Origin: Gammaproteobacteria bacterium
GTDB taxonomy: Bacteria; Pseudomonadota; Gammaproteobacteria; Eutrophobiales; Eutrophobiaceae
DNA: 64,000 bases
Direction of reading: 5' to 3'
Assembly (NCBI GenBank): GCA_965202915.1
Contig: OZ241847.1
Span: 1,665,972 to 1,729,971, forward strand
The position numbers and the translations under genes were made by a program. The notes beneath the pieces were generated by a model that saw only the letters and a list, made by a program, of their open reading frames with translations, was not told the DNA's origin and did not search any database. Position 1 is the stretch's first letter, and every line of letters begins with the position of its first letter. Positions 358-55,398 of this stretch are shown piece after piece.

Positions 358-867
358 ATGAAAATTATCGTCCAATACGAGGACAACGAGGTACTTACTG
401 CCTTGAACCGCTTGCTTGCCGCCGGGCGCAATTTAAACCCTCTTATGAAGATTATCGCCAGTCACTTGGAAGATACCATCGAGGAAGCCTTCAAGACCGA
501 GACATCACCCGAAGGCAAAAAATGGCAAGCCCTCAGCGAGGTTACCAAGGATCATCGCGCCAAACAGAAAAAACGGACGGGTGAAATTCTCCAACTCAGT
601 GGCGAACTCGCCCGCAGCATCGTATCCCGCCACGACGCCACCAGTGCTATCGCTGGCACCAACATCAAATACGCCACCACCCACCAATTTGGCGCTAAAA
701 AGGGCGAGTTTGGCAGATTCTCAATAATCAAAACGCGGCAAGTAGTACCTATTCCCTGGGGTGATATTCCAGCCCGGCCGTTTCTCGGTGTCTCCAAACA
801 AACCCGGGTACAAATCAACAACGCGGTCCGCCGCCACATCAAAACTGCTTTTTCACCTCATGGATAA
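358..867 (+). CDS. Phage virion morphogenesis protein (Mu gpG / P2 S-like tail-completion family).
   Basis: 169 aa. RBS GGAGA precedes the ATG. The C-terminal motifs ...GTNIKYATTHQFGAKKG... and ...IPARPFLGVS... are typical of the phage virion morphogenesis family. It is isolated, with an AT-rich flank at 868-1100. Confidence 0.55.
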   Translation: MKIIVQYEDNEVLTALNRLLAAGRNLNPLMKIIASHLEDTIEEAFKTETSPEGKKWQALSEVTKDHRAKQKKRTGEILQLSGELARSIVSRHDATSAIAGTNIKYATTHQFGAKKGEFGRFSIIKTRQVVPIPWGDIPARPFLGVSKQTRVQINNAVRRHIKTAFSPHG

Positions 868-1124
868 GAACTAGCTCTCTTGCCAAGTTTTAATCATAAT
901 TTACCGCCCTGATCAACAACGATTAAAACTCGATTAAAAAACGATTATTATAACCATTATTCCACTAATTTTTCATCAATAATCGGTTAAAAAGTACAAT
1001 TTCAAATGTTAATTCCCTCTATTTTTCAATCCAAGAAACCATCAACGATTCAAAAACTTACCCCCCACACGCCCCTAACTGCAAATTCCCATTCTAAACA
1101 TCCCCCTACATTGACGGCCTGTCG

Positions 1125-2132
1125 GTGCTTGTGACGTTGGATTTGGGTGGCAACGCCTTCACCACGCTACCCGCCGGTGTCTTTGACGGCCTGTCGGCGC
1201 TTGAGGATTTGCGTTTGAATGACAGCGCCTTCACCACTCTGCCCGCTGATGTCTTTGACGGCCTGTCGGCGCTTGAGACCTTGGATTTGATTAGAAACGA
1301 CTTCACCACTCTGCCCGACGGCGTGTTTGACGACGTGCTGGACACCTTGGGCGCCATAGGCGAAGACTCGATCGCGAGCTTCCGTGTTGACGACACCGTC
1401 CGCAACGCCCATTTTGTCTGCTCGCGGGCGGACGCCGATGCCATTGTAGCCGCCACCGCCGGTGTGACCGACTGCCTGCGGATCACCACCGCGCAACTCG
1501 TCGCCGCTCTCTCGAATGCCGGCCTGAGTACGCTGACGATTTCCCAAGGCACACTGACGCCGGTGTTTGATCCCGCCACCTTCACTTACAGTGCCATGGT
1601 GCCCAATACCGTGACCACCCTCACCCTCACCCCCACGGCCGCCGGCAGTGGCGCAACCGTAGCCGTGACAGTGAACGCGGGAGCGGCGATCCCCAACCTC
1701 CCATTCACCGCCGCCCTCAACGTCGGCGCCAACGACATAGCAATCGTCGTTACCGCCGCGAACCCCATCACGCAGACCTACAGACTGACCGTAACCCGCG
1801 CCCTTCCGCTGGACCTGAATCAAGACCAGACCGTCAACGCCCAGGATGCCCAGATCCTGTATTATCTCTCGCTGACGCCCCGGCCCGACAACCTGCTGAA
1901 CACACTGCTGGGGAACGCCGAAAATATTGCCGCACTGGAGGCCGGAGCCGATGCCCTGGCGGGCGCAAACCGGTTCGACCTGGTCGGTAATGATGGCCTG
2001 AACCAGAATGACTGGCGGCTGCTGTACTATGCCCTGCGGTTTGAGGATGAGCTGAGTGCCAGCCCGGCACTGCAAGATGCGCTGGGGGTGACGGAGGCGA
2101 CTCTGCGTGCCGTGCGGTTGCTTATTGAATGA
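1125..2132 (+). CDS. Modular surface protein: leucine-rich repeats, a cadherin-like beta-sandwich and a C-terminal dockerin-like double repeat. Probably 5'-truncated.
   Basis: LRR-type repeats (FTTLPxGVFDGLSALExL) run from residue 1, and the repeat frame stays open upstream to a stop at 1095 without a convincing start. The mid region (GTLTPVFDPATFTYSAMVPNTVTTLTLTPTA...IAIVVTAANPITQTYRLTVTR) matches the Cadherin-like (PF12733) pattern. The C-terminus carries two D-x-N-x-D...LYY dockerin-like segments that are homologous to the N-terminus of the 36091..39123 protein. Confidence 0.55.
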   Translation: MLVTLDLGGNAFTTLPAGVFDGLSALEDLRLNDSAFTTLPADVFDGLSALETLDLIRNDFTTLPDGVFDDVLDTLGAIGEDSIASFRVDDTVRNAHFVCSRADADAIVAATAGVTDCLRITTAQLVAALSNAGLSTLTISQGTLTPVFDPATFTYSAMVPNTVTTLTLTPTAAGSGATVAVTVNAGAAIPNLPFTAALNVGANDIAIVVTAANPITQTYRLTVTRALPLDLNQDQTVNAQDAQILYYLSLTPRPDNLLNTLLGNAENIAALEAGADALAGANRFDLVGNDGLNQNDWRLLYYALRFEDELSASPALQDALGVTEATLRAVRLLIE

Positions 2133-2800
2133 CAGGAGTCGGGGTCTCCCGACCCCGATAAAACACACAATCGGCACGCCGGATTCTCTGTACAGGAGTC
2201 GGGGTCTCCCGACCCCGATAAAACACACAATCGGCACGCCGGATTCCCTGTACAGGATGACGGGTTTTCAACCCGTAGGCGGGTTTGGAAACCCACCCTC
2301 CTGTTTAAAACACACAATCGGCACGCCGGATTCTCTGTACAGGAGGACGGGTTTCCAAACCCGTCATAAATCATTCAACTTTTAATGTGTTTTTTTTTAT
2401 AGGAGTCGGGGTCTCCCGACCCCGATAAAACACACACTCGGCACGCCGGATTCTCTGTACAGGAGGACGGGTTTTCAACCCGTAGGCGGGTTTGGAAACC
2501 CACCCTCCTGTTTAAAACACACACCCGGCACGCCGGATTCCCTGAGCAACCGGGGTTTTCCAATCCGTCTTAAATCATTCAACTTTTAATGTGTTTTTTT
2601 TTAGGCGGGTTTGGAAACCCACCCTCCTGTTTAAAACACACACCCGGCGCGTCGGATTCTCTGAGCGACCGGTATTTCTGGACTGCATCGGGGCTTTTAA
2701 ATATAATGAAACAAGAGGTGGACGGGTTTTCAAATCCGTCTTTAATCATTCAACTTTTAATGTGTTTTTTTTAGGCGGGTTTGGAAACCCACCCTCCTGT
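2133..2800. repeat. Mosaic hairpin-repeat array (BIME/REP-like) in the intergenic region upstream of tkt.
   Basis: Six copies of a ~40-bp core (taaaacacacaNNcggcRcgYcggattcYctg). Each is flanked by short hairpin modules (caggag+tcggggtc-tccc-gaccccga; gacgggttttcaacccgt; gggtttggaaaccc) in both orientations. A 38-bp module (aaatcattcaacttttaatgtgttttttttt) occurs three times. Confidence 0.85.
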
Positions 2801-2814
2801 GGGAGCAATATATA

Positions 2815-4809
2815 GTGTTATCCAGGCGTGAACTTGCTAATGCGATACGAGTGTTGAGTATGGATGCGGTGCAGAATAGTAATTCCGGGCATCCGGGGGC
2901 GCCTATGGGTATGGCGGATTTTGCCGAGGTCCTGTGGAATGATTTTATTCGGCATAATCCGGGTAACCCGGATTGGTATAATCGCGACCGGTTTGTGATG
3001 TCGAATGGTCATGGTTCCATGTTGTTGTATTCCATCCTGCATCTGTGCGGTTATGATATTTCCATGGATGAGATAAAAAATTTCCGGCAACTGCATTCAA
3101 AGACGCCCGGCCATCCCGAATATGGCGATGCGCCCGGTGTGGAGGCGACCACCGGGCCGCTGGGACAGGGGCTGGCGAATGCGGTGGGTATGGCGGTCGC
3201 CGAGCGGGCGCTGGCGGTGCGTTTTAATCGCGATCGGTTCAATGTGATCGACCATCATACGTATTTTACGGTTGGCGACGGCTGCCTGATGGAGGGTATT
3301 TCGCATGAGGCCTGTTCATTGGCGGGCACGTTCAAACTCGGCAAATTGATCGGATTGTTTGACAGTAACCGGATCTCGATAGACGGCGACGTCAGGGGCT
3401 GGTTCACCGAGGACACGGCGCAGCGTTTTCAGGCGTATGGCTGGCAGGTGATCGATGCGGTGGACGGCCATGATCCGGAGCAGATTAAAACCGCTATCGC
3501 TGCGGCGATAGCGGAACGCGAGCGGCCCAGCCTGATCTGTTGCAATACCATTATTGGCCTGGGTTCGCCAAATAAACAGGATACCGCGGCCAGCCACGGC
3601 GCGCCTCTGGGTGAGGCCGAGGTGGAATTGGTGCGACGATCCCTGGGTTGGGATTTCGGGCCGTTTGAAATGCCCGCGGAATATTACCGGGGATGGGACG
3701 CCAGACAAAAGGGCGGACGGCTTGAGGACGATTGGAATGATTTATTCTGCGAGTATGAACGGGCACACCCGCGGGAGGCCGCCGAATTTCGGCGACGCAT
3801 GCGGGCAAAACTGCCGGCAGCCTGGCCGGAAGCCGCGAGTGCGTATATCGACCAGGTAAAACCTGAAAATATCGCCTCCCGCAAGGGTTCTCAAAATGCC
3901 TTAAATGCTTATGCCCCGGTGTTGCCTGAGCTGATCGGCGGTTCGGCGGATCTCACCGGTTCCAATCTGACCCGCGTCGACGGGTCCCGCACGCTGTCGG
4001 CGGATCGCCCCGACGGCAATTATATCTATTACGGCGTGCGGGAGTTTGCAATGGTGGCGATCAACAATGGCATCGCCCTGCACGGCGGCTTTATTCCCTA
4101 CGGCGGTACGTTTTTAATTTTTTCCGAATACGCCCGCAATGCGATCCGGATGGCGGCACTGATGGAACTGCGTACTATCTTTGTGCTGACCCATGATTCC
4201 ATCGGTCTCGGCGAGGACGGCCCCACCCATCAGGCGGTTGAACAGGCGGCGACGCTGCGCCTGATCCCCGGACTGTCGGTGTGGCGCCCCTGTGATGGTA
4301 CGGAAACCGCGGTGGCCTGGCGGCTGGCGATAGAACGCCTCAACGGCCCCACTGCGTTATTATTATCGCGCCAGACCCTGCCCCATATTCCCAGAAGCGG
4401 GCAACAGGTGGAGCGTATTCAATATGGTGCGTATGCCCTCACTCAGGTTGATATTGAGCCGGAATTAATTATTATTGCAACGGGTTCGGAAGTCGGTCTG
4501 GCCTATAATGTGGCCGTCAAACTCGGCGAGCAGGGTAAAAAGGTGCGGGCGGTGTCGATGCCGTCCACCGACGTGTTTGATCGACAACCGCGGGAGTACC
4601 GGGATTCGGTGTTAACGCCCGGCTGTAAAAAGCGTATTGCGATAGAAGCGGGGGTAAGCGATTACTGGAGAAAATACGTAGGCCTGGATGGGGCGGTGAT
4701 CGGGCTGGACGGCTTTGGTCGGTCGGCGCCGGGGGATGAGGTGTATCGCTATTTCGGCATTACCGAGGAATGCCTGACGGCGCTGGCGGTGGACGTTCTC
4801 GATTCATAA
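2815..4809 (+). CDS. tkt: Transketolase.
   Basis: 664 aa from a GTG start. The N-terminus [41 protein letters not shown] closely matches the E. coli TktA N-terminus. It is the first gene of a tkt-gap-pgk-fba cluster. Confidence 0.97.
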
Positions 4810-4824
4810 ACGGGGTATAAAAAC

Positions 4825-5838
4825 ATGGCAATTAGAGTGGGAATAAACGGATACGGCAGAATTGGCCGCAATATATTGCGCGCCGCCTATGAGTCCGGGC
4901 GCGATAAAGAGATTCAAATTGTGGCCATCAATGATCTGGGCGACGCCGGCAGCAACGCCCATCTGACCCGTTATGACACCGCCCACGGCAAATTTCCCGG
5001 CAGCGTCGAGACCGAACGCGATTGGATGATCGTCAATGGCGACCGGATAAAGGTGTTGTCTGAGCGGGATCCGGCGCGCCTGCCCTGGGGTGAACTGGAG
5101 GTCGATATCGTCTATGAATCCACCGGTTTGTTTGTCACCGGGGAAAAGGCCGGCGCCCACTTACAAGGCGGGGCAAAGAAGGTGATCATCTCGGCGCCCG
5201 GGGGCGAAGACGTGGATGCGACCATCGTCTATGGCGTCAATCATCACCTCCTGAAGGCCTCCGACCGGGTGATTTCAAATGCCTCGTGTACGACCAACTG
5301 TCTGGCGCCGGTGGTGCAGGTCATCGACGAACACGTTGGGCTTGTGAGCGGTATTATGACAACGGTGCACGCCTATACCAATGATCAGGTGCTCAGCGAC
5401 GTCTATCATCCCGATCTGCGGCGCGCCCGCTCGGCCACCATGTCGATGATCCCGACCAAAACCGGCGCCGCCAGGGCCGTGGGCCTGGTACTGCCGCAAC
5501 TCAAGGGCAAACTCAATGGTTACGCCATACGGGTGCCGACCCTTAATGTTTCGGTTATCGATCTCAGTCTGATCGCCGCCAGAGAAACCAGTGTCCGCGA
5601 AATTAATGCCCTTATGCGGGACGCCGCCGACGGCCGCTTGAAGGGGGTGCTGGCCTATAATGCGGAACCGTTGGTGTCGATAGATTTTAATCACCACCCG
5701 GCGTCTGCGATCCATGATGCGCCATTAACCCAGGTTATCGACGGTACCCTGGTGAAGGTGGTCGCCTGGTATGATAATGAATGGGGGTTCTCAAATAGAA
5801 TGCTGGACGTGGCGGTGGCGCTGATGCGGGCCGGCTGA
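4825..5838 (+). CDS. gap: Glyceraldehyde-3-phosphate dehydrogenase (type I).
   Basis: 337 aa. NAD-binding [10 protein letters not shown] and the active-site SCTTNCLAP motif are present. Confidence 0.97.
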
Positions 5839-5847
5839 GCAGTAACC

Positions 5848-7062
5848 GTGTCTATACTGGTAAAAATTGCCGATCTGGATCTGAATAATAAAACGGTACT
5901 CATCCGGGAAGATTATAATGTGCCGCTCAGAGACGGTCGGGTTGCGGACGATACCCGCATCGTCGCCAGCCTGCCGACCCTGCGGGAGATCGGCGCCGCC
6001 GAAAACGTGAAGATCATTATCGTCGCCCACCTGGGGCGTCCGATAGAGGGTGAATATGATGCGGCCTTTTCATTGCGCCCGGTTGCGGAGTGTCTGTCGC
6101 AACACCTGGGCGAGCCCATCCCACTGCTTAAAAACTGGATCGATGGCGTTGATTTTGGCGGTCATAAGCTGGTGCTGTGTGAAAACGTCCGCTTTGAGCG
6201 GGGCGAGAAAGATAATGAAGATGCGCTGGCCCGAAAAATGGCGGCACTGTGCAATATTTACGTGAACGATGCGTTTGCCACCGCCCACCGGGTTCAGGCT
6301 TCCACTTACGGGGTCGCCAAATATACCGCGATGGCCTGCGCCGGACCGTTATTGATCTCCGAACTCAAGGCCCTGTCCAAGGGGATCAAAGACCCTGAGC
6401 GGCCGTTGGTGGCGGTCGTCGGCGGGGCCAAGATCTCCACCAAACTGGTATTGCTGGAATCACTGGTGAATATTGCCGATCAACTGATCGTAGGCGGGGG
6501 CATAGCCAATACCCTGCTCCGGGCCGCGGGGTATCATATCGGTCGCTCACTGTATGAAGCCGATCTGGTTGGGGTCGCGGAAAAGATACTGCAACGGGCT
6601 GAAACCAGGCAATGCGCGATACCCCTGCCGGTGGACGTGGTCTGTGCAAAGGAGTGCAATGAGTCCGCCGGCGCCGAGGTAAAGCCGATAGCGGCGGTCG
6701 CCGATGATGATTTGATCCTGGACGTGGGCCCTGAAACCACCGCCACCCTGGTTGATTCCCTGGCGGGCGCCAATACCATCGTATGGAACGGGCCCCTGGG
6801 GGCGTTTGAATTTGATCAATTCGGTCAGAGTACCGGCGCGATAGCCGCCGCGATAGCCGCCAGTCCGGCGTATTCGATAGCCGGCGGCGGGGACACGCTG
6901 GCGGCGGTGACAAAATACGGCGTCACCGCCGGGATTGATTATATCTCCACCGGCGGCGGGGCATTTCTGGAATTTCTGGCGGGACAAAAATTACCGGCGA
7001 TAGCGATGCTGGAGGAAGCCACCCGCGCCTGGGTGGCGATGGAGCACGGCCGGGAACTGTAA
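5848..7062 (+). CDS. pgk: Phosphoglycerate kinase.
   Basis: 404 aa from a GTG start, with Pgk hallmarks (REDYNVPL, AHRAxAS, GGGAKISTK). Confidence 0.95.
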   Translation: MSILVKIADLDLNNKTVLIREDYNVPLRDGRVADDTRIVASLPTLREIGAAENVKIIIVAHLGRPIEGEYDAAFSLRPVAECLSQHLGEPIPLLKNWIDGVDFGGHKLVLCENVRFERGEKDNEDALARKMAALCNIYVNDAFATAHRVQASTYGVAKYTAMACAGPLLISELKALSKGIKDPERPLVAVVGGAKISTKLVLLESLVNIADQLIVGGGIANTLLRAAGYHIGRSLYEADLVGVAEKILQRAETRQCAIPLPVDVVCAKECNESAGAEVKPIAAVADDDLILDVGPETTATLVDSLAGANTIVWNGPLGAFEFDQFGQSTGAIAAAIAASPAYSIAGGGDTLAAVTKYGVTAGIDYISTGGGAFLEFLAGQKLPAIAMLEEATRAWVAMEHGREL

Positions 7063-7147
7063 GCGGCGATGATCGGCGGGGCCTGGCGTTGCCGGCAAAG
7101 TCCCAGGCATTCATTATAATATTCAAACTAACAACGCGGGGAGAGCT

Positions 7148-8173
7148 ATGACGATACGACAACAACTGCAGGAGACGGCGGCGGCGCTGGTTGCCCGGGG
7201 CAAGGGCATACTCGCGATAGACGAAAGCACGCCCACGATAAAGAAACGGTTTGATGCCATCGACGTCGAATCCACCGAGCAAAATCGCAGGAGCTATCGG
7301 GATCTGCTGATCACCAACCACGGCGACGCCGAATATATCAGCGGCATGATTCTGTATGACGAAACCATCCGCCAGGCCGCCGCCGACGGCACGCCCTTCC
7401 CACGGGTATTGATGAACAAAAACATTATGCCCGGCATTAAAGTCGACAAGGGCGCAAAAGAGCTGGCCCTGCACCCGGATGAAAAGGTAACCGAAGGACT
7501 GGATGGACTGGCCGACCGATTGGCCGAATACAACGCCCTCGGCGCGAAATTTGCCAAATGGCGCGCGGTGATCACGATAGGGGACAAGCTCCCCAGCCCG
7601 GCCTGCATAGACGCCAACGCCCATGCACTCGCCCGTTACGCCGGCCTGTGCCAGGCGGCCGGGCTGGTGCCGATAGTGGAACCGGAGGTATTGATGGACG
7701 CCGACCATACCATCGAGTGCTGTTACGAGGTGACCGCAAAAACCCTGTCGACCCTGTTTAATACGTTGCGTGGCCAGGGGGTCAGCATTGAACACACCCT
7801 GTTAAAAACCAATATGGTGATCGCCGGCAAACAATGTTCAAAGCAGGCCGGCGTCGACGAGGTGGCCGCGCAAACGGTGCGCTGTTTACGGCAAAACGTA
7901 CCGGCCGAGTTGCCGGGCATCGTGTTTCTTTCCGGCGGCCAGACCGCGGTACTTGCGACCGCCCACCTTAATGCAATGAACGCCGCCCATTCCGATCTGC
8001 CCTGGCCGTTGAGTTTTTCTTATGGCCGCGCATTGCAGGAGCCCTGCTTAAAGGTCTGGGGCGGCGACGCGGCAAATATTGCGGCGGCCCAAAAGGCATT
8101 ATTGCATCGTGAGCGATGCAACAGCCTGGCCTGTCTGGGGAAATATACGGAGGACGTGGAGCAGGCGGCCTGA
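7148..8173 (+). CDS. fba: Fructose-bisphosphate aldolase, class I.
   Basis: 341 aa. GKGILAIDES, the Schiff-base lysine context and the overall length are typical of class I FBA. Confidence 0.85.
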   Translation: MTIRQQLQETAAALVARGKGILAIDESTPTIKKRFDAIDVESTEQNRRSYRDLLITNHGDAEYISGMILYDETIRQAAADGTPFPRVLMNKNIMPGIKVDKGAKELALHPDEKVTEGLDGLADRLAEYNALGAKFAKWRAVITIGDKLPSPACIDANAHALARYAGLCQAAGLVPIVEPEVLMDADHTIECCYEVTAKTLSTLFNTLRGQGVSIEHTLLKTNMVIAGKQCSKQAGVDEVAAQTVRCLRQNVPAELPGIVFLSGGQTAVLATAHLNAMNAAHSDLPWPLSFSYGRALQEPCLKVWGGDAANIAAAQKALLHRERCNSLACLGKYTEDVEQAA

Positions 8174-8228
8174 TGCGCTTGTAGTGTACAAACTCTCCGG
8201 CGTTGGCCTATAATACAGGCTGTTTCAG

Positions 8229-8957
8229 ATGCTGAACAGGGGCAAAATAATGAGCAAACGCGGGGCTTACGGCGTGAACGAGGCCGTCGATTATAATGCG
8301 ATAAGCAGTGTTTGGACCGGCACGGATGCCGCGCTGCTTACGGAAATGCTGGATTTCTATCCGGTCATCGACACCGAGCCGATCCTGGATGCCACCTATA
8401 ACACGGGCCGCATGTGGCGGGGAACGGGCCGTAACCCTGTGTCCATGGACATCGACCCGCGGTACGCCCCCGATATTGTGGCGGACAACCGCGTTATGGC
8501 GGGCGTCCGGGACAATTCCTACGCAGTCGTGGTGTACGATCCGCCGCACGTCGGGCCGCAGGGCCGAGATAAGAGCAAAAAGCGCTTCGATGTGGACTTC
8601 GGCGCGACCATGGCTTGCGGAAAGGAGCACGGATGGAGCCTGAGCTACCTGTATCCGCCGTTCCTGGAGCAGGCCAGGCGCGTCCTCAAGCCGGATGGCA
8701 TTCTGCTCGCCAAGATCACCGACATTGTGAACAACCATCGCCAGCGCTGGGCGCACTGCGACTTCATAGCGATGGCCGGGAATGCCGGGTTCGTGGTCTG
8801 CGATCTGATTGTGAAAGTGCGAAAAGGGCCGATGAAGTCCACCAAATGGAAAAATGCTCAGCATGCCCGCAAGCGTCATTGTTTCTGGATCGTATGCCGC
8901 AACGGGCCATACAGCGAACGCAGGCTGAGTACCGGGGCCGATGTTGCGGTCGTATAA
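8229..8957 (+). CDS. Putative DNA amino-methyltransferase (N6-adenine/N4-cytosine type, DPPH variant of the DPPY motif).
   Basis: 242 aa. VVVYDPPH (motif IV-like) is preceded by a Gly-rich motif I-like segment. Its end overlaps the downstream GIY-YIG nuclease gene by 17 bp, as in R-M operons. Confidence 0.5.
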   Translation: MLNRGKIMSKRGAYGVNEAVDYNAISSVWTGTDAALLTEMLDFYPVIDTEPILDATYNTGRMWRGTGRNPVSMDIDPRYAPDIVADNRVMAGVRDNSYAVVVYDPPHVGPQGRDKSKKRFDVDFGATMACGKEHGWSLSYLYPPFLEQARRVLKPDGILLAKITDIVNNHRQRWAHCDFIAMAGNAGFVVCDLIVKVRKGPMKSTKWKNAQHARKRHCFWIVCRNGPYSERRLSTGADVAVV

Positions 8958-9474
8958 CCCACTCAGCATCGATGAACTGGGCCGGAACGCCGTGCGTGCC
9001 CTGATGGCCTACGACGTCGCCGAACTGCCACCCGGCGATCCGTTCCAGGGCGCAGGCGTCTATACGATCCACTACGCTGGGTCGTTTGCGCCATATGCAG
9101 GACTGGGTGAGACGCCGATCTATGTCGGCAGGGCAGACAATGACCTGCATGGCCGGCTGTCGGAGCACGCAGCGTCCATTGAAGCCGCAGAGAATCTGCG
9201 CCGCGATGAGTTCGGCTGCCGCTGGCTCGTGCTCGAACCGATCTGGATCAATCTGACCGAGAAAATCCTGATCGACCGGTACCGCCCCATCTGGAACAAG
9301 GTGCTGATAGGGTTCGGCATCCATGATCCGGGCGGTGGACGGCGCAATCAGCGTCGCTCCCAATGGGACACCGTGCATCCGGGAAGATCATGGTCGGCAA
9401 AGCAGCGCGAACCAGAGGAACCAGCCGGGCAACTGCTGGAACGAATCACACAGCATCGACGGCAAGAGCAATGA
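8941..9474 (+). CDS. GIY-YIG family nuclease, candidate type II restriction endonuclease (Eco29kI-like).
   Basis: 177 aa. GVYTIHY...PIYVGRADNDLHGRLSEH followed by conserved E and N residues gives the GIY-YIG catalytic pattern (Y, Y, R, H, E, N). It is translationally coupled to the upstream MTase. Confidence 0.5.
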   Translation: MLRSYNPLSIDELGRNAVRALMAYDVAELPPGDPFQGAGVYTIHYAGSFAPYAGLGETPIYVGRADNDLHGRLSEHAASIEAAENLRRDEFGCRWLVLEPIWINLTEKILIDRYRPIWNKVLIGFGIHDPGGGRRNQRRSQWDTVHPGRSWSAKQREPEEPAGQLLERITQHRRQEQ

Positions 9475-9593: not shown

Positions 9594-9866
9594 ATGATCA
9601 AGTCCTTCAAGCACAGAGGCCTGGAGATGTTTTACGAAAGTGGCAGTGTTAGAGGAATTCAGGCGAAGCACGCCGACAGACTGAGAATGCGACTGGCGGC
9701 CCCGGATACCGCTCAATCCATCGATGACATCGATATTCCAGGGTATCGATTGCATCCGTTGACGGGTGAGCGAACAGGTGGCTGGTCGATCACTGTAAAT
9801 GCAAACTGGCGCCTTTGAATTTAAAGAAGGAAATGTATATATATTAAATTACGAGGATTATCACTA
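9594..9866 (+). pseudogene. higB: HigB (RelE/ParE-superfamily) toxin interrupted by a +1 frameshift near 9813-9816.
   Basis: Frame 0 gives MIKSFKHRGLEMFYESGSVRGIQAKHADRLRMRL...GWSITVNANWRL then a stop at 9816-9818. The +1 frame continues FEFKEGNVYILNYEDYH and stops at TAA 9865-9867, overlapping the higA ATG (TAATG). Both parts match the canonical HigB (PF05015) N- and C-termini. Confidence 0.8.
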
Positions 9867-10160
9867 ATGGCTATGCACAATCCCCCCCATCCGGGTGAAT
9901 TTATCGTGGCTTCCTATATGGAACCATTTGGTTTAAGTTGCCACTATCTTGCTGCGAAATTAGACGTTGCCGCATCAACCCTTAACCGAGTGCTGAAAAA
10001 GCAAAGTGGTATCAGCCCGAAAATGGCACTGCGCCTGTCTAAAGCCCTGGGGCGTAGTCCTGAAAGCTGGCTGGTGATGCAGGATAATTATGATCTTTGG
10101 AAGGCAAGGGGACGGGTGGAACTTCAAAAGATCAAAAAGATACCCCTTAACGCCGCATAA
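9867..10160 (+). CDS. higA: HigA antitoxin (XRE-family HTH).
   Basis: 97 aa. The HTH segment ...LSCHYLAAKLDVAASTLNRVLKKQSGISPKMALRLSKALG... is present, and it sits immediately downstream of higB. Confidence 0.85.
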   Translation: MAMHNPPHPGEFIVASYMEPFGLSCHYLAAKLDVAASTLNRVLKKQSGISPKMALRLSKALGRSPESWLVMQDNYDLWKARGRVELQKIKKIPLNAA

Positions 10161-33085: not shown

Positions 33086-33426
33086 ACGGCGGTTGCGTCG
33101 GAAGACGACCCTTGCCAGGCGGTGAATCTGCACATCCTATGACCACTTGCACACCGCCTATAACCACGAACATCGTAAAGCACGGCACAAAGGCGTATAT
33201 GAATGGAATGGCTCACACAAACGGCATTGAGAGTGTCTGGGCGATGCTGAAAAGAGGGATTTACGGCACCTATCACCATGTCAGCAAAAAGCACCTTAAC
33301 CGCTATATTGACGAGTTCATATTCCATTTGAATGAGGGAAACGTCAATGTCTTGCTGGTAAGCCGTATCGCTTCGTTGAGTTGTATGAGCGCAGGCATGC
33401 CCTATAAGCCACTGCTCAGGGGATGA
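33082..33426 (+). mobile_element. IS1595-family (ISXO2-like) transposase C-terminal remnant.
   Basis: ...HTNGIESVWAMLKRGIYGTYHHVSKKHLNRYIDEFIFHLNEGNV... matches the C-terminal DDE-region tail of IS1595-family transposases. The N-terminal ~250 aa are absent, and the fragment abuts the parC stop codon. Confidence 0.65.
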
Positions 33427-34343
33427 GCACAATGCCAAGTCTCAATGCTATTGCGGCTAGTTGTTCAAAGTCCATATTCCAGTCACGCATTATCACCGGC
33501 GATGTTCTGAAAACACTGAAAAACCAGCCCTTTAATCTGAAGTTTGATGTAGTAATTGCCGACCCGCCGTATAACATTGGCAAGGATTTTGGGAACAACA
33601 ACGATAGCCTACCTATTGACGATTATGTCGACTGGTGCAACCAATGGCTAGAGCAATGCTTTCGCCTGTTGACCGATAATGGATTGGTCTATGTGTACGG
33701 GTTCCACGAGGTTTTAGCGCGTATTGCAGTAAATTATCCGGTGGATGAGCAACGCTGGCTGGCGTGGCATTACACTAACAAAGCAGTGCCATCCTCAAAG
33801 TTCTGGCAACGATCCCACGAGGCAATCCTGTGCCTGTGGAAACCGGGGACCAAGCGGCCAATATTGGAAATTGACCAAATCCGAGAACCATACACACCCA
33901 ATTTCCTCAAATGTGCTGGCAGGGAGAGAAACGACACAAAGGGCAGGTACAGCAAAAAAGGAAAAAAGACAATTTACAACGACAACGGCGGCGCACTTCC
34001 TCGTGATGTAATTGATATACCTGCATTAGCTGGCGGTGCTGGTCGGGTGGAGCGGTGGTTTTCATGCCGGGAATGTGGCGGAGAGGTGAGGCCGCCTAGT
34101 GAATTGGCAAATCATGCTGGCCACAGCATACTCAAACATCCTACTCAAAAACCAATGGAGTTGACTAGGCGGCTGATATTGTCCCGAATCAACGGCCGGC
34201 AGGGCCGCACCTTGATACCCTTCACAGGGTCAGGCTCCGAGTGTGTAGTTGCAAAATCGCTTGGAGTCGAGTTTCTTGGCATTGAAATCAATCCTGAATA
34301 CGCTAAATTCGGGCGCAGTTGGTTAAAGCAATGTACCACTTGA
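33423..34343 (+). CDS. Site-specific DNA methyltransferase (N4/N6 amino-MTase, beta class).
   Basis: 306 aa. DPPY (VVIADPPYNIG) lies upstream of motif I (IPFTGSGSECVVA). The HPTQKP motif and a Cys-rich insert are present. Confidence 0.85.
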   Translation: MSTMPSLNAIAASCSKSIFQSRIITGDVLKTLKNQPFNLKFDVVIADPPYNIGKDFGNNNDSLPIDDYVDWCNQWLEQCFRLLTDNGLVYVYGFHEVLARIAVNYPVDEQRWLAWHYTNKAVPSSKFWQRSHEAILCLWKPGTKRPILEIDQIREPYTPNFLKCAGRERNDTKGRYSKKGKKTIYNDNGGALPRDVIDIPALAGGAGRVERWFSCRECGGEVRPPSELANHAGHSILKHPTQKPMELTRRLILSRINGRQGRTLIPFTGSGSECVVAKSLGVEFLGIEINPEYAKFGRSWLKQCTT

Positions 34344-34921
34344 CTCCGCGAATGACGCAACGGCTCAAAGCGGACCTGGCCAAATACCACGATCTGTTCA
34401 CAGGAAAACGATGCGAGAGTTGGGAATTGGAAGAGTTGATTGTTGCAGCAATCAAATCAGACACGCAGGCACAGCATCATGTTCGTTGGCAGGAAAAGGG
34501 GCATGATGATCTCGCCGATATTGTCGTGCGGACGAATGGATCACAGCATTCAATTCAAATCAAATCCGGGCAGATAAAAGCAGGCAAGTTGATATTGTCT
34601 GGCCACAGATTGGGCCGATTCAATGGCGTAATGGATGATATTGGCGCATACCTCAATACGCCGAGAGCAAATATCATGGCGGTTCCGCACAGATTGATAG
34701 ATGATAGCAAAGGGCGCCAGCATATTTATCGCGTATGCTATGTGGATATTAAGATAATGACTGGCCTTGAGACCAATAAATGGGAAAAGCGGGGCGCGCA
34801 ATATGTCCAAACAAACGCGGGAGGTGTAGAGTTCTCTTTGCGGCCGTCTATGAGTTGGCAAATCTGGTGGGCTATACCCGTAAGCCTAATTGAACAAACC
34901 GATGAGTTTGTTATCGGCTAG
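34319..34921 (+). CDS. Putative type II restriction endonuclease (PD-(D/E)XK-like), cognate to the upstream MTase.
   Basis: 200 aa overlapping the MTase by 25 bp. A candidate catalytic core HDDLADIVVR...SIQIKSG (D...D...QxK) is present. The assignment rests mainly on context. Confidence 0.45.
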   Translation: MVKAMYHLTPRMTQRLKADLAKYHDLFTGKRCESWELEELIVAAIKSDTQAQHHVRWQEKGHDDLADIVVRTNGSQHSIQIKSGQIKAGKLILSGHRLGRFNGVMDDIGAYLNTPRANIMAVPHRLIDDSKGRQHIYRVCYVDIKIMTGLETNKWEKRGAQYVQTNAGGVEFSLRPSMSWQIWWAIPVSLIEQTDEFVIG

Positions 34922-34991
34922 TTTGTTTATTTCAGGGTATAATTCCCTAATATAGCCTCTTTTCCAGCCCATCTATATTTTAAAGAAAAAA

Positions 34992-36090: not shown

Positions 36091-39000
36091 GTGGCACCAC
36101 CACCGCCGGTGACCCCGGCAAACCCGTTACCCCCGGCGTCCGCGCTTATCGACCAACAATCGCAGGCCTTTGAGCCGCTTGCACTGCACGCCACCGCAAC
36201 CGGGCCACAGCGGCCCGAAGTCGCATTTCAGACCGGCGCTGTATCCCTGGTCTCTCTGAACCTGAACCAACAGCAGGGTATAGAGGCGCAAGACGCACAA
36301 ATACTGTATTACGTCGCCCTGTCGCCGGCCAATTTGACGACCCTGCTGGACAATCTGAGGGGAACCGACGCCGAGGCGGATCTTATAACCCGTGCGAATG
36401 CCTGGCTGAACCAGGACCTGGGCCTGAGCACCCTGCCCGATCTGAACAATGACAATATCCTGAACCAGGAGGATGCACGCATCCTGTACTATGCCTATCG
36501 GTTTGGCGATCTGCTGCGCGTCAGTCCCAGCCTGCGCGAGGCAATACTGGGCGATCTGACCGACGAAGACGATAGTGCCGCCAATCCGGATGACGTATAT
36601 CGGGAGATACTGGACCGGACTGGGTTATTCAGGCCGTCGGTGATCGACCTGACCAGCCTTGGTGAGGCCGACGGCTTTATTATCCAGGGCGATGCGGCCA
36701 GGGACGGGGCGGGCGTGAGCGTATCCACTGTCGGCGACGTCAACGGCGACGGCTATGCCGATGTAATCGTCGGGGCGCGCGGTGGCGACGACGGTGGCAG
36801 GAATGCCGGCGAGGCCTACGTGGTATTTGGCAGGGCGGGCGCCTTTGGCAGCCTGGACGGCACCAACCGCCGGGTGATCGACCTGACCAGCCTTAGCGAG
36901 GCGGACGGTTTTATCATCCAGGGCTTGGGAGGCGACCAGGTGGGCGAGGGCATATCCGGCGCCGGCGACGTCAACGGCGACGGCTATGCCGACCTGATTG
37001 TTGGGGCGCACCTGGGTGACGACGGTGGCAGGAATGCCGGCGAGGCCTACGTGGTGTTTGGTAAGGCGGGCTTCTTTGGCAGCCTGGACGGCACCGACCG
37101 CCGGGTGATCGACCTGACCAGCCTTAGCGAGACGGACGGCTTTATTATCCAGGGCGACGCGGTCGGGGACCGTGCAGGCGAGCGCGTATCCGGCGCCGGG
37201 GACGTGAATGGCGACGGCTTTGCCGATCTGATCGTCGGGGCGCAGTCGGCCAACGACGGTGGTACCGATGCCGGCGAGGCCTACGTGGTGTTCGGCAGGG
37301 CGGGCCCCTTTGGCAGCTTGGACGGCACCAGCCGCCGGGTGATCGACCTGACCCGCCTTAGCGAGACGGACGGCTTTATTATCCAGGGCGACGCGGTCGG
37401 GGACCGTGCGGGCTGGAGCGTATCCGGCGCCGGGGACGTGAACGGTGACGGCTATGCCGACCTGATCGTCGGGGCGCTCTATGGCGACGACGGCGGGGAA
37501 AATGCCGGCGAGGCCTATGTCGTGTTCGGCAGAGCATCCGGCTTTGGCAGTGACGTCACCACCACAGTGGATGGGGAAGGCAGCTTCATCCGCCGGGTGA
37601 TCGACCTGACTGGTCTGAGCGAAGCCGATGGCTTTATCATCCAGGGCGATGAGGCCGGTGCCTATGCGGGCAATAGAGTTGGTGATACTGCGGGCTTTAG
37701 CGTATCCGGCGCCGGGGACGTGAACGGCGACGGCTATGCCGACCTGATTGTCGGGGCACGCCGGGGTGACGACGGTGACGACGTTGACGTCAATGCCGGC
37801 GAGGCCTACGTGGTGTTAGGCAAGGCGGGCGGCTTTGGTATTGACGTCACCACCACAGTTGAGAGGGAAGGCAGCTTCACCCGCCGGGTGATCGACCTGA
37901 CGAGCCTGGCCGCGGAGGACGGCTTTATCATCCAGGGCGATATGGCTGGGGACAATGCGGGCTTTAGCGTATCCACTGCCGGGGACTTCAACGGCGACGG
38001 CTTTGCCGACCTGATCGTCGGGGCACTTGGGGGCGACGACGGTGGGGAAAATGCCGGCGAGGCCTACGTGGTGTTCGGCAAGGCGGGCGGTTTTGGTATT
38101 GACGTCACCACCACAGTTGAGGGGGAAGGCAGCTTCACCCGCCGGGTGGTCGACCTGGATGGCCTGGTTGCAACGGACGGCTTTATTATCCAGGGTGATG
38201 CGCCTGGCGACTATGCGGGCTATAGCGTATCCGCTGCCGGCGATATAAACGGCGACGGCTATGCCGACCTGATCGTCGGAGCAATCAGGGGCGACGACGG
38301 TGACGACAGTGACATCAATGCCGGCGAGGCCTACGTGCTGTTCGGCGGCCTGGCCGCCGGCCTAAGTTCCGAGGCCACCGTATTACTCGGCACCGGCGGC
38401 AACGACGACCTCAACGTCGACGGCCGTGCCACGGTTGTACTCGCCGGCGCCGGCGATGACGTGCTGACCGTGGACGGCTTCACCAATACCGATCTGCTCA
38501 AATTCGATGGCGGCACCGGCACCGATACCCTGCGCTTCGCCAACCCCGACGCAGACACCGGCCTGAGCCTGGATTTAAGCACCCTCGCCGACACCCGCCT
38601 GAGCAGCATAGAGCGCATAGACCTCAGTGGCAGCGGCGACAATAGGCTAACCCTGATCCGTCTGGACCTGTTGAACCTGTCCGAGGCGCGCACTAATGGC
38701 CGCGCCGAGCTACGGGTCGACGGCAACGCCGGCGACCGCGTCAGCGCCACCGATACCGGCTGGACGCAGCAGGCTGATATCATCACCGACGACGGCATGT
38801 ACAGGGTCTTTGACAACGGCAATGCCCGCCTGCTGGTCAATATGGAGGTGGCGCTGGGCGACAATTTAATGGCGGCCAGCATGGCCAGCCGGGATGAGCT
38901 CCTGCAAAGCTGTTGCGGCACGCAGACCGTCGATATCCGCGCATTGCTGCAGGCCCTGCCGCCGCCGGACGAAGAGCAACAGCGCAGGATCATGGAAGAT

Positions 39001-39123
39001 GAATTGGCGATGTTGGGGCCGTCACCGGAGGCAAAGGCGGCGATGATGCCTGATGAACCCACGGCGGCACCGGAGACCGACCTGTTCGACCTGCCGCCGC
39101 TCATCCCGGATGATGGCATGTAG
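36091..39123 (+). CDS. Large FG-GAP (integrin-alpha-like beta-propeller) repeat protein with an N-terminal Pro-rich linker plus a dockerin-like module and a C-terminal Gly/Asp-rich region loosely reminiscent of RTX repeats. It is probably the distal part of the phase-variable gene starting at 35742.
   Basis: About 10 tandem ~72-aa repeats (RRVIDLTSLSEADGFIIQGD...GDVNGDGYADLIVGA...DGG.NAGEAYVVFG.AG.FG) match the FG-GAP consensus. The N-terminus carries a dockerin-like pair (LNLNQQQGIEAQDAQILYY..., DLNNDNILNQEDARILYYAYRF). The C-terminus has GGNDDLNVDG...AGAGDDVLTVDG...FDGGTGTDTLRF. Confidence 0.8.
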   Translation: MAPPPPVTPANPLPPASALIDQQSQAFEPLALHATATGPQRPEVAFQTGAVSLVSLNLNQQQGIEAQDAQILYYVALSPANLTTLLDNLRGTDAEADLITRANAWLNQDLGLSTLPDLNNDNILNQEDARILYYAYRFGDLLRVSPSLREAILGDLTDEDDSAANPDDVYREILDRTGLFRPSVIDLTSLGEADGFIIQGDAARDGAGVSVSTVGDVNGDGYADVIVGARGGDDGGRNAGEAYVVFGRAGAFGSLDGTNRRVIDLTSLSEADGFIIQGLGGDQVGEGISGAGDVNGDGYADLIVGAHLGDDGGRNAGEAYVVFGKAGFFGSLDGTDRRVIDLTSLSETDGFIIQGDAVGDRAGERVSGAGDVNGDGFADLIVGAQSANDGGTDAGEAYVVFGRAGPFGSLDGTSRRVIDLTRLSETDGFIIQGDAVGDRAGWSVSGAGDVNGDGYADLIVGALYGDDGGENAGEAYVVFGRASGFGSDVTTTVDGEGSFIRRVIDLTGLSEADGFIIQGDEAGAYAGNRVGDTAGFSVSGAGDVNGDGYADLIVGARRGDDGDDVDVNAGEAYVVLGKAGGFGIDVTTTVEREGSFTRRVIDLTSLAAEDGFIIQGDMAGDNAGFSVSTAGDFNGDGFADLIVGALGGDDGGENAGEAYVVFGKAGGFGIDVTTTVEGEGSFTRRVVDLDGLVATDGFIIQGDAPGDYAGYSVSAAGDINGDGYADLIVGAIRGDDGDDSDINAGEAYVLFGGLAAGLSSEATVLLGTGGNDDLNVDGRATVVLAGAGDDVLTVDGFTNTDLLKFDGGTGTDTLRFANPDADTGLSLDLSTLADTRLSSIERIDLSGSGDNRLTLIRLDLLNLSEARTNGRAELRVDGNAGDRVSATDTGWTQQADIITDDGMYRVFDNGNARLLVNMEVALGDNLMAASMASRDELLQSCCGTQTVDIRALLQALPPPDEEQQRRIMEDELAMLGPSPEAKAAMMPDEPTAAPETDLFDLPPLIPDDGM

Positions 39124-39131
39124 CCACCACC

Positions 39132-39424
39132 GGAGCCCGTGACTCCCGTCGCGGGTAAAACAACCCCCCCTGACAAGGGGGCAGGGGGGGTTCCCCCAAC
39201 ACCGGCACCTTACCCCAATCACCCCGGATTCCCAAACTGCACCGAGTCTTTGCCGAACAACACCAAACCACCCCAATTAACACCAAACCCCCCAACCCCC
39301 CTTGTCAGGGGGGCTACTGAGCGACACCGGCACCTTTCCCCCAACCAACACCGTGAGCGGGGCTGAGTTGCGGGTTGACGATAATGTTGATTGTTATATA
39401 CCCGCGACGGGAGTCACGGGCTCC
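39132..39424. mobile_element. MITE-like element copy A (293 bp) with 26-bp perfect terminal inverted repeats.
   Basis: ggagcccgtgactcccgtcgcgggta ... tacccgcgacgggagtcacgggctcc. The interior shares ~200 bp with copy B and carries C/G homopolymer hairpins. It begins 9 bp after the stop codon of the FG-GAP gene. Confidence 0.8.
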
Positions 39425-39580
39425 TGTGATGAGCGGTGCAGGCCTCTGCTGAACAATTTCATTTGATAACGGCGGGGCGTGGGTCTATACTGACTATATG
39501 AAAGATACGAGCATACCGGTAACACCCTGTGGCAAGTGGATGATAACTGTCGTCCCGTATAAATTATCCGGTACCTGAAT

Positions 39581-40027
39581 ATGGAAGCCATCGCATTTGA
39601 TACCCATAAATTTGTCAAGCACCTGACTGCATCGGGTTTCACCGAAGCGCAGGCGGAAGCCCTGGCCGGTGAGCAGGTCGATATGATTAACAGCAATCTG
39701 GCCACCAAGGCCGACATAGAGAAACTGCGCCTGGCCACCAAGGCCGACATAGAGAAACTGCGCCTGGCCACCAAGGCGGACATAGAGCAACTGCGCGCGG
39801 ACACCAGGGCGGACATTGCCGAGGTGAAGGCGGACATAGAGAAACTGCGCCTGGCCACCCAGGAGGACATAGAGAAACTGCGCCTGGCGACCCAGGCGAA
39901 CATAGAGCAACTGCGCGCGGACACCAGGGCGGACATTGCCAATACCGAATCAAGACTGACGCGCTGGATCGTTGGTGCGATGATTGCGCAGATCGGCGTG
40001 GTTGTCGGGTTGATTAAATTGAGTTGA
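39581..40027 (+). CDS. DUF1640-like coiled-coil protein with a C-terminal transmembrane helix and internal 11-aa tandem repeats.
   Basis: 148 aa. The N-terminus MEAIAFDTHKFVKHLTASGFTEAQAEALAG is followed by (LATKADIEKLR)n encoded by 33-nt tandem repeats (~39697-39950) and a C-terminal hydrophobic WIVGAMIAQIGVVVGLI. Confidence 0.6.
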   Translation: MEAIAFDTHKFVKHLTASGFTEAQAEALAGEQVDMINSNLATKADIEKLRLATKADIEKLRLATKADIEQLRADTRADIAEVKADIEKLRLATQEDIEKLRLATQANIEQLRADTRADIANTESRLTRWIVGAMIAQIGVVVGLIKLS

Positions 40028-40029
40028 CA

Positions 40030-40292
40030 GGAGCCCGTGACTCCCGTCGCGGGTAAAACCCACACCCAGCACGCCGGATTCCCCAACCCCCCCGGATTCC
40101 CAAACTGCACCGAGTCTTTGCCGAACAACACCAAACCACCCCAATTAACACCAAACCCCCCAACCCCCCTTGTCAGGGGGGCTACTGAGCGACGCCGGCA
40201 CCTTTCCCCCAACCAACACTGTGAGTCGTGCTGAGTTGCGGGTTGACGATAATGTTGATTGTTATATACCCGCGACGGGAGTCACGGGCTCC
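40030..40292. mobile_element. MITE-like element copy B (263 bp), same family and orientation as copy A.
   Basis: Identical TIRs. Its 5' module (caggag+hairpin+taaaacccacacccagcacgccggattcc) is homologous to the core unit of the 2133..2800 array. Confidence 0.8.
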
Positions 40293-40411
40293 TGTAACTA
40301 TAAGGCAACCGCCGGACAAAACCCGCCAGGCCGGATCTGCCGGGATCAAACAATATCTATTATGCTCGGCCTGCTTTACAATGTAAGCGATATGAACGGA
40401 ATGAGCCTGCA

Positions 40412-54498: not shown

Positions 54499-55398
54499 TT
54501 ACTGCTCTAAAACATCTTTCAACGTATCAATCTGCTGCTGATAGATTTCCGGCCTATCCCGCCTGAATTGCTCTAAGTTCGAGAGTTTCCATTTTACCGA
54601 TGGAAATTCCTGAAAATCATAAATCGACCAATCTGGCTCTAAACCATTAAGGCTTAGTAAAAACGCTCTATCATTTTCATTTAAACTCGTCTTTACCGTT
54701 TCGATTAATTGCAGTCTTGTGGCCTCATATTCATCGTAACTAAACTCAATCACGTTCATGCCTTCAAACTGATTTTCAAACGCCGTTCGCTGATCGATCA
54801 AATGAGGAACAAGCATTTCATGGGTCGGGCGATTACTGCTCACCAGACCCAAAATGAAGCCTTGCTTGATCTCATCGGTAAAGCCTTCATTATCCAGTAA
54901 CAGCTTTACATCAAATAAATCTCGTGGATGTTGCCTGTCCAGGGCAGCACATAACTTGCCACCATATAATTGCGCCAAGGGTACAAGCGGCATCGCACAA
55001 AACGCATCAAATTCCTCTTGAGCGGCTTCGCAAAGTGGCTTCTTATTGGAGTCACCCAGCAGGCCTCGCCCTACCATGTTTACTTCTATCTTGATGAGTA
55101 CACCGTGCTCATCCAGTTGTAATTTGCAAACCTTCTCTTTGTGTTGAACGCGTATTGACGAGCGCAACCCTTCGATACGATCTTTAATGCGAACAAGCGC
55201 CGCATTAATCCCATCAAGCGTTTCATTACGTTCAGCAATCTCGACATAGGTTAAATCGATATCAACCGACAGCCTTGGCATATCGCGCATAAAGAGATTG
55301 ATCGCCGTGCCGCCATGCATGGCAAAACATGCTTCTTTAGCTACTTCTGGCAACACATCCAAAAGCAGCCTGACCTGTTTTTTGCAGGCGTCATTCAT
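54499..55398 (-). CDS. AbiEii/AbiGii-family nucleotidyltransferase toxin (type IV TA / abortive infection).
   Basis: 299 aa. The N-terminal MHGGTAINLFMRDMPRLSVDIDLTY matches the DUF1814/AbiEii motif. Confidence 0.8.
   Translation of the reverse strand: MNDACKKQVRLLLDVLPEVAKEACFAMHGGTAINLFMRDMPRLSVDIDLTYVEIAERNETLDGINAALVRIKDRIEGLRSSIRVQHKEKVCKLQLDEHGVLIKIEVNMVGRGLLGDSNKKPLCEAAQEEFDAFCAMPLVPLAQLYGGKLCAALDRQHPRDLFDVKLLLDNEGFTDEIKQGFILGLVSSNRPTHEMLVPHLIDQRTAFENQFEGMNVIEFSYDEYEATRLQLIETVKTSLNENDRAFLLSLNGLEPDWSIYDFQEFPSVKWKLSNLEQFRRDRPEIYQQQIDTLKDVLEQ

Follow-up and report, generated by a model that had tools for sequence, protein, structure and literature searches.

We show here that the ~670-bp spacer 5' of the transketolase (tkt) operon in an uncultured gammaproteobacterium is a repeat array, and we propose that the repeats clustered in it belong to a lineage-specific family of tagged palindromes that also surrounds genes for DUF1640/CCDC90-like coiled-coil proteins. 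The array occupies positions 2133-2800 of the window, by which we mean the whole stretch of 64,000 nucleotides that was analysed (contig OZ241847.1, assembly GCA_965202915.1, positions 1,665,972 to 1,729,971). It abuts the stop codon TGA (2130-2132) of the upstream gene and ends 15 nt before the GTG start codon of tkt (2815), in front of the operon tkt-gap-pgk-fba with its class I fba. A reading of the sequence from 1900 to 3000 and a repeat finder both resolve the region into reiterated modules throughout, in agreement with the original prediction. We are highly confident that this is a real, structured repeat family of the lineage that grew by tandem duplication and turns over at the level of strains. 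The complete account, including the origin of the array, its contribution to a promoter and the involvement of an HUH enzyme, is held with moderate confidence, and the enzymatic step taken by itself is doubtful.

The core module measures 33 nt and is present in the six copies that had been predicted. Four of them (at 2160, 2220, 2307 and 2427) lie within two mismatches of a 39-nt query, for which shuffled sequences lead to an expectation of zero, and the copies at 2514 and 2633 are more diverged variants. Hairpin A (CAGGAG-tcggggtc-tccc-gaccccga-T) occurs three times in the array, hairpin B (caggag-gacgggttt(t)c(c)aaacccgtc) five times with one degenerate copy, and hairpin C (aggcgggtttggaaacccacc-ctcctg) four times. 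Hairpin C is an inverted variant of B, one compensatory pair and one wobble apart from it. For every module searched as a pattern (core, hairpins A and C) no match is expected in shuffles. The AT-rich linker module was indeed found three times, but only two copies end in T9 as described and the third ends in T8. The three hairpins had also been said to occur in both orientations; inside the array each type has a single one, with the tag on the plus strand for hairpins A and B and on the minus strand for hairpin C, and both orientations are seen only across the family. In the window as a whole, 11 of 36 CAGGAG/CTCCTG sites abut a stem of at least 7 bp, compared to 0-1 in 20 shuffles. The modules are arranged as follows:

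2133-2800: the repeat array, ~670-bp spacer 5' of the tkt operon
2133-2159, plus strand: A-end 1, tag CAGGAG with hairpin tcggggtc-tccc-gaccccga and T, directly after the TGA of an open reading frame (ORF) with leucine-rich repeats (LRR) and cadherin-like sequence
2160-2192, plus strand: core copy 1 (aaaacacacaatcggcacgccggattctctgta)
2193-2252, plus strand: A-end 2 and core copy 2, the second copy of the 60-bp tandem unit
2253-2303, no strand assigned: short B/C doublet 1 (CAGGAT-hpB-A-hpC-CTCCTG), two inverted tagged hairpins
2304-2339, plus strand: TTT and core copy 3
2340-2399, plus strand: tag and hairpin B (gacgggtttccaaacccgtc), then AT-rich linker copy 1 with T9 end
2400-2459, plus strand: A-end 3 (tag TAGGAG) and core copy 4, where the second 207-bp tandem unit begins
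2460-2510, no strand assigned: short B/C doublet 2
2511-2602, plus strand: TTT and core copy 5 (variant), degenerate hairpin B, AT-rich linker copy 2
2603-2629, tag on minus strand: hairpin C and CTCCTG, whose 5' foot is the exact start of identity with the sister strain
2630-2662, plus strand: TTT and core copy 6 (variant)
2663-2720, plus strand: 'prom' module of 58 nt with a sigma-70-like site inside
2721-2799, no strand assigned: proximal REPIN-like unit of hairpin B, linker copy 3 (T8), hairpin C and CTCCTG
2801-2817, plus strand: ribosome-binding site GGGAG of tkt (2801-2805) and GTG start (2815)

Hairpin B, linker and hairpin C form units at 2548-2629 and 2721-2799. Tandem Repeats Finder detects two nested structures, a 60-bp unit in 2.1 copies at 98% and a 207-bp unit in 2.0 copies at 91%, both of which take in flanking core. 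Much of the reiteration is these two nested tandem duplications rather than many independent copies.

The history of the array was read from relatives. A sister strain (ENA ERZ25068762) contains the tkt locus on an independent long-read contig, L078, and positions 2602-8169 of the window are 99.6% identical to L078 7778-13345. The proximal ~200 bp of the array are identical in both strains, whereas beyond the 5' foot of hairpin C, in the upstream direction, nothing in the array or in the adjoining genes corresponds. There, L078 carries AsmA-MutY-YggX, then three DUF1640 genes, and directly after these an array of its own, built from a 150-bp tandem unit in 3.4 copies (hairpin A, core, prom, hairpin B, linker) and a 115-bp 'tail' unit in 2.9 copies. 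Outside the lineage, the closest relative (tkt 76% identical) shows AsmA-MutY-YggX, then a 144-bp spacer without any of the modules, then tkt. Because the outgroup spacer is plain and L078 differs distally, the array is a gain of this lineage with rapid turnover at its distal end. Directly 5' of it, the window (358-2132) holds a phage-tail gene (virion morphogenesis, PF05069) and the LRR plus cadherin-like ORF where the relatives have AsmA-MutY-YggX, which points to a prophage insertion or rearrangement with its junction at the first tagged hairpin.

The basic unit of the family is an unpaired 5' tag (A)CAGGAG, minimally GGAG or GGTG, followed by a GC-rich stem of 8-9 bp, a TCCC or CC loop (loops are 2-4 nt long) and T(A). 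It had been claimed that the pairing is kept while the sequence changes, and the covariation analysis bears this out. From the window and related loci 28 ends of the TCCC type were collected, which reduce to 10 distinct variants, and the 8-bp helix was scored. Paired bases fill 95% of the cells and five of the eight stem pairs have changed on both sides, a pairing or covariation score that none of 500 shuffles reached; when the partner is slid by 1-3 columns pairing falls to 32-52%. Intermediates are present as well, at one stem position as G-C (v2), G.T (v10) and A-T (v3), at another as T-A, G.T and A-T. The compensatory changes that had been noted between the array and the hairpins at 39132 and 40030 are likewise real. 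It is thus the hairpin and not its sequence that is conserved. Pairs that are not Watson-Crick are nearly all G.T on the tag-bearing strand (~6 events to 1), although with ~7 events the asymmetry of G.T against A.C is not significant. G.T pairs also persist in right-end copies in which the tag strand is antisense to every neighbouring gene, and single-stranded DNA (ssDNA) therefore fits better than mRNA as the form that would be under selection. Folding predictions turn the short B/C doublet (2253-2303) into one long hairpin of -27.5 kcal/mol (z = -4.4) and the B-linker-C unit with its 32-nt linker into one of -40 kcal/mol (z = -3.5). One hairpin is chimeric (L097 11812-11836, tag on the minus strand): its 5' arm is of the TCGGGGAC variant and its 3' arm of the GTTGCGGG variant, joined at the TCCC loop, and six of eight positions pair. 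This could be a mark of strand exchange or template switching at the loop.

The same units form the ends of two elements at 39.1 and 40.0 kb that resemble miniature inverted-repeat transposable elements (MITEs):

39129-39433, plus strand: MITE-like element 1, 305 bp, non-coding, with terminal inverted repeats (TIRs) made of tag and hairpin cccgtgac-tccc-gtcgcggg
39572-40026, plus strand: DUF1640/CCDC90-like coiled-coil gene of 151 aa (PF07798), between elements 1 and 2
40027-40295, plus strand: MITE-like element 2, 269 bp, non-coding, with inverted repeats as in element 1 and a core copy beside the left hairpin

The relation of the array to these elements had been predicted, and it is borne out by a common tag, TCCC loop and T-AAAAC continuation, while the stem (cccgtgac/gtcgcggg) differs. 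Both elements have perfect terminal inverted repeats of 27-29 bp, are small and contain only spurious ORFs, as is characteristic of MITEs. The TGA stop codon of the intervening gene directly abuts the CAGGAG tag of element 2. Across the lineage, two inverted units serve as ends of non-coding, MITE/REPIN-like elements of 270-390 bp, and the hairpin at the left end of an element often has another sequence than that at the right end, each still being paired. Comparison of the flanks in the window and the related loci revealed target-site duplications at no complete copy; element 1 has ..ccacc to its left and tgatga to its right, element 2 ttga and taacta. Another family of palindromes, C6-TTRTCA-G6 (TGACAA/TGATAA when inverted), lies inside the MITE-like elements and near or inside the starts of giant adhesin genes (window 39164-39181, 39296-39313 and 40164-40181; L078 4636, 4674, 5895 and 5933; L097 11665-14034; L098 9743, 11224 and 12685). 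Positions 36091-39123 encode a 1,010-aa FG-GAP repeat protein with at least eight units of ~234 bp, which ends 5 nt before element 1.

A census of 133 kb of non-redundant DNA of the lineage, biased by the fact that copies elsewhere were located mainly via DUF1640 paralogs, places 39 of 41 tagged hairpins beside DUF1640 genes or in the tkt array: 31 lie within 1 kb of DUF1640 genes, eight in the array of the window, and the two in the other 118 kb are chance-like. In the sampled DNA the family is confined to the surroundings of DUF1640/CCDC90-like paralogs and the tkt array and is not dispersed. In collections that did not include the source genome (GTDB representative genomes, JGI metagenomes and IMG/VR) the core pattern gave single chance matches only, without extended similarity, and blastn searches of the array against plasmids and of an element against phages gave no match.

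The tight linkage raises the question of whether the repeats are mobile at all. They might be fixed flanks of DUF1640 cassettes, a 3' hairpin that stabilizes or terminates the mRNA plus an upstream regulatory region, spread only by segmental duplication and recombination, with the tkt array as debris of the adjacent cassette array. The census itself would be expected on such grounds, as would the three DUF1640 genes directly before the array of the sister strain, the head of the element, which always begins at a DUF1640 stop codon, and the fact that tandem duplication explains most of the array. Elements 1 and 2 with the gene between them (39129-40295) are moreover 100% identical in the sister strain. 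However, complete head-to-tail elements stand on both sides of single DUF1640 copies at four unlinked loci, so that movement of the units beyond local duplication is needed. One DUF1640 paralog (L102) is wholly devoid of tagged hairpins, and the distant homologues L100 and L101 have none either, so that the hairpin cannot be a general, built-in part of DUF1640 genes. In addition, the array meets an unrelated gene at 2130-2133, and tail hairpins keep their pairing and G.T pairs on the antisense strand, which argues against a role in mRNA. We therefore consider immobile cassette flanks unlikely. That the upstream LRR gene might retain the end of a DUF1640 gene at its own 3' terminus was rejected, since the local alignment was no better than in shuffles (155 of 500).

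Quite unlikely, too, are ordinary MITEs of a DDE-type insertion sequence, in which the TIRs are read by their sequence and the array arose from nested insertions and later duplication. The perfect inverted repeats, small size and missing coding capacity of elements 1 and 2 would suit such an origin, and the window contains a fragment of an IS1595-type transposase at ~33130-33410. This fragment has no tagged repeats nearby, though, and no insertion sequence with ends of this kind was found in the DNA examined. Unlike what is expected of DDE-derived MITEs, target-site duplications are missing at every copy, and the ends of one element often differ in sequence with pairing kept and stems covarying.

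For the tagged palindromes the comparison shows the following course of events. The ancestral yggX-tkt spacer was ~144 bp long and free of repeats. DUF1640 cassettes with their flanking elements entered it within the lineage and seeded the array, and element pieces beside tkt were amplified by tandem duplication, in units of 60 and 207 bp in the window and of 150 bp in the sister strain. Modules were also exchanged at boundaries that fall on hairpin feet. The distal part turns over within <0.4% sequence divergence, with the proximal ~200 bp remaining fixed. Tag and hairpin may be recognized as ssDNA by an enzyme that reads their structure and whose gene would lie elsewhere in the genome, as suggested by the covarying stems, the G.T pairs on the tag strand, the differing ends of the elements and the lack of target-site duplications. 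Among the candidates, an HUH/Y1 transposase of the type associated with repetitive extragenic palindromes (REPs) or TIRs (REP-associated tyrosine transposases, RAYT, or TIRYT) is the most likely. If tag and hairpin were its substrate, covarying stems, ends that do not match and absent duplications would all be accounted for.

Conservation of the proximal unit may have a bearing on tkt expression. The sole good sigma-70-like site of the array, TGGACT (2679-2684) and TATAAT (2702-2707) with a 17-nt spacer, matches the consensus at 10 of 12 positions and is the only site with this score. It is kept in L078, and in both strains a promoter-like site is confined to the conserved proximal unit. The 5' half of the 'prom' module, -35 included, shares homology with internal sequence of the MITE-like elements, and the tkt promoter may for this reason be partly repeat-derived. 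We infer that the fixed proximal unit supplies this promoter and a predicted structured leader of ~100 nt, with the long B-linker-C hairpin just before the ribosome-binding site.

The array could also be read as a transcribed regulatory RNA, for example as a protein sponge of the Csr/Rsm type that is rich in GGA motifs, or as a riboregulatory leader or an attenuator for the tkt operon. GGA motifs are present in the tags, the core (CCGGATTC) and the tip of hairpin C, and the proximal unit with its strong predicted fold is probably within the leader. Rfam 15 at gathering score detects three tRNAs only in the window, though, and noise without anything credible in the array and elements at E<=1. 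No terminator on the plus strand was found within the array, elsewhere the units are found as element ends in either orientation, and the distal array is not conserved between strains that are 99.6% identical in tkt. A regulatory RNA is thus very improbable as an explanation of the array. An assembly artefact by repeat collapse or expansion, as repeats are difficult to assemble, or a degenerate CRISPR array (clustered regularly interspaced short palindromic repeats; a 27-nt repeat and 33-nt 'spacer' with a 60-bp period, the hairpin repeat followed by ATAAAAC superficially resembling a type I-E repeat and spacer) is barely credible, because the copies are separated by point changes (91-98% identity), the independent L078 contig with its identical proximal 200 bp and analogous array argues that such arrays are real, the 'spacers' are all one sequence that recurs beside other hairpins and inside MITE-like elements, and no cas domains were found among the window ORFs scanned.

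Several observations weigh against the account of mobile tagged palindromes that we prefer. The original prediction suggested looking for an associated RAYT or IS200/IS605 tnpA gene; the window and ~115 kb of related loci have neither these nor any other transposase close to a copy, as judged from general domain scans and the gene lists of the loci and not from a query directed at RAYT. Pfam annotation of 34 window ORFs shows no transposase except for the unrelated IS1595 fragment region, and neither an insertion sequence with ACAGGAG-hairpin ends nor a RAYT gene flanked by tagged hairpins (REPtron) was seen in the window or the related loci. Between 39129-40295 and the sister strain there is no insertion or excision polymorphism. 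Processes at the DNA level may also keep palindromes symmetrical without selection, and the promoter and leader of tkt are predictions from consensus and folding. The bias of the census and the small number of events behind the strand asymmetry belong here as well.

The array had been described as similar to REPs and to bacterial interspersed mosaic elements (BIMEs), and this description holds for the palindrome, the tag architecture, the dimers and the clusters; it does not hold for the tag sequence, the dispersal and the site for integration host factor (IHF). REPs are palindromes of 20-40 bp with an unpaired GTAG or CGTC tag, stems of 6-13 bp and short loops; their sub-families show complementary stem changes, G.T pairs and head-to-head, tail-to-tail and head-to-tail dimers, and their clusters are reiterated together with flanking DNA (Di Nocera et al., PMC3733652). 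The family described here shares with REPs, BIMEs and REPINs (PMC3116915) a short, imperfect and GC-rich palindrome (stem 6-13 bp, loop 2-4 nt) that carries an unpaired tag of 4-6 nt at one end. Also shared are the complementary stem changes and G.T pairs, the inverted dimers that fold into longer hairpins, the clusters reiterated with flanking DNA and the lack of target-site duplications. Its tag, in contrast, is (CA)GGAG and is not among the degenerate GTAG forms given in PMC3733652, no genuine copy was found in 118 kb away from DUF1640 genes and the tkt array, and the units serve also as ends of 270-390 bp elements. The IHF consensus WATCAANNNNTTR, which in the BIME-1/RIP type lies in the linker between inverted REPs, has no match with up to one mismatch on either strand of 2133-2815. 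Since dispersal fails in the sample, the tag differs and no transposase was found, we do not assign the family to REP/RAYT. It is a new lineage-specific member of the tagged-palindrome/MITE class and no demonstrated REP/RAYT system. The type of feature is ordinary; what is unusual is the GGAG tag, the linkage to DUF1640 and the turnover at strain level beside an operon of central carbon metabolism.

Related architectures are known from other systems. TIR families surround tyrosine transposase genes (TIRtrons/TIRYT; PMC3733652). These are moderately abundant families of longer inverted repeats, some with self-complementary tracts, arranged as dimers or in clusters, and the present family resembles them. 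In the known cases the flanked gene encodes a Y1 transposase, whereas here it is a DUF1640 coiled-coil gene without a catalytic domain, and no TIRYT was found in the window or the related loci. With palindrome-associated transposable elements derived from IS200/IS605 (PATEs) the family has in common the lack of target duplications and the subterminal hairpins, which are recognized as ssDNA in those elements and may be so here. The ends of IS200/IS605 elements are not inverted repeats of each other, both hairpins being read on the same strand; here, no TnpA or TnpB gene was found near copies in the window or the related loci. The pneumococcal BOX (boxA-boxB(n)-boxC) and the Neisseria Correia elements are modular MITEs and, like the array family, non-coding mosaics with inverted-repeat ends and variable internal modules, located between genes near promoters and with possible effects on the expression of neighbouring genes. 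BOX and Correia families are dispersed in tens to hundreds of copies, and Correia elements make TA duplications. The ends described here are covarying hairpins and not fixed sequences, and we know of no sequence similarity between the array family and BOX or Correia.

If the proposed mechanism is true, a wider range of tags would be recognized by structure-specific (HUH-type) enzymes, and the family would be an example of tagged hairpins that carry a non-transposase gene (DUF1640) around the genome. Failing that, an uncultured gammaproteobacterium simply has a further repeat family specific to its lineage. In practical terms, the array serves as a hypervariable marker that tells apart strains whose adjacent genes are >99.6% identical, and its conserved proximal unit is a candidate for a repeat-derived promoter and leader of a key operon of carbon metabolism. 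The most far-reaching version, in which GGAG-tagged hairpins join the GTAG and CGTC super-families of tagged palindromes as a third, with an ssDNA enzyme of their own and element pairs that mobilize DUF1640 cassettes and rebuild the promoter of tkt-gap-pgk-fba on the timescale of strains, is speculative and decidedly improbable.

The DUF1640/CCDC90-like proteins combine a coiled coil with a C-terminal membrane anchor, and at least eight paralogs are encoded on the 2.49-Mb source contig. Members of the family were noted at several loci (window 39572-40026; L078 4273-7194; L097 10001-11545; L098 10001-10468; L102 10001-10336). In-frame tandem repeats of 33 and 54 bp (ADIEKLRLATK units) make their length vary between 76 and 281 aa, and the genes often adjoin giant FG-GAP/cadherin adhesin genes. 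By these traits they look like a variable family of surface or envelope genes. Just upstream of 3,500-aa FG-GAP/cadherin genes, an ORF of 129-133 aa contains poly-G tracts of ~17-30 G (L097 12466-12494 and L098 11148-11165) whose length differs between contigs; these could be phase-variable homopolymers or a sequencing problem.

Strain differences are also seen away from the array. A variable island lies 3' of fba (window 8208-9474, L078 13346-15181, L079 4104-4153). In the window it encodes an Eco29kI-like restriction endonuclease and a weak match to a DNA methylase, in the sister strain DUF1652/EcsC genes, and in a third assembly (L079) only ~50 bp are present. Positions 33129-34944 are a 1.8-kb insertion relative to the sister strain (L103 4142-4535) and encode what looks like the C-terminal part of an IS1595-type transposase, along with an N6/N4 DNA methylase (PF01555) and a 200-aa ORF without a Pfam match; at this site the sister strain has only an 80-aa Zn_ribbon_IS1595 ORF. 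Toxin-antitoxin modules are encoded at 9594-10160 and 54499-56165, comprising a HigB-like toxin with an HTH_3 partner and an AbiEi/AbiEii pair.

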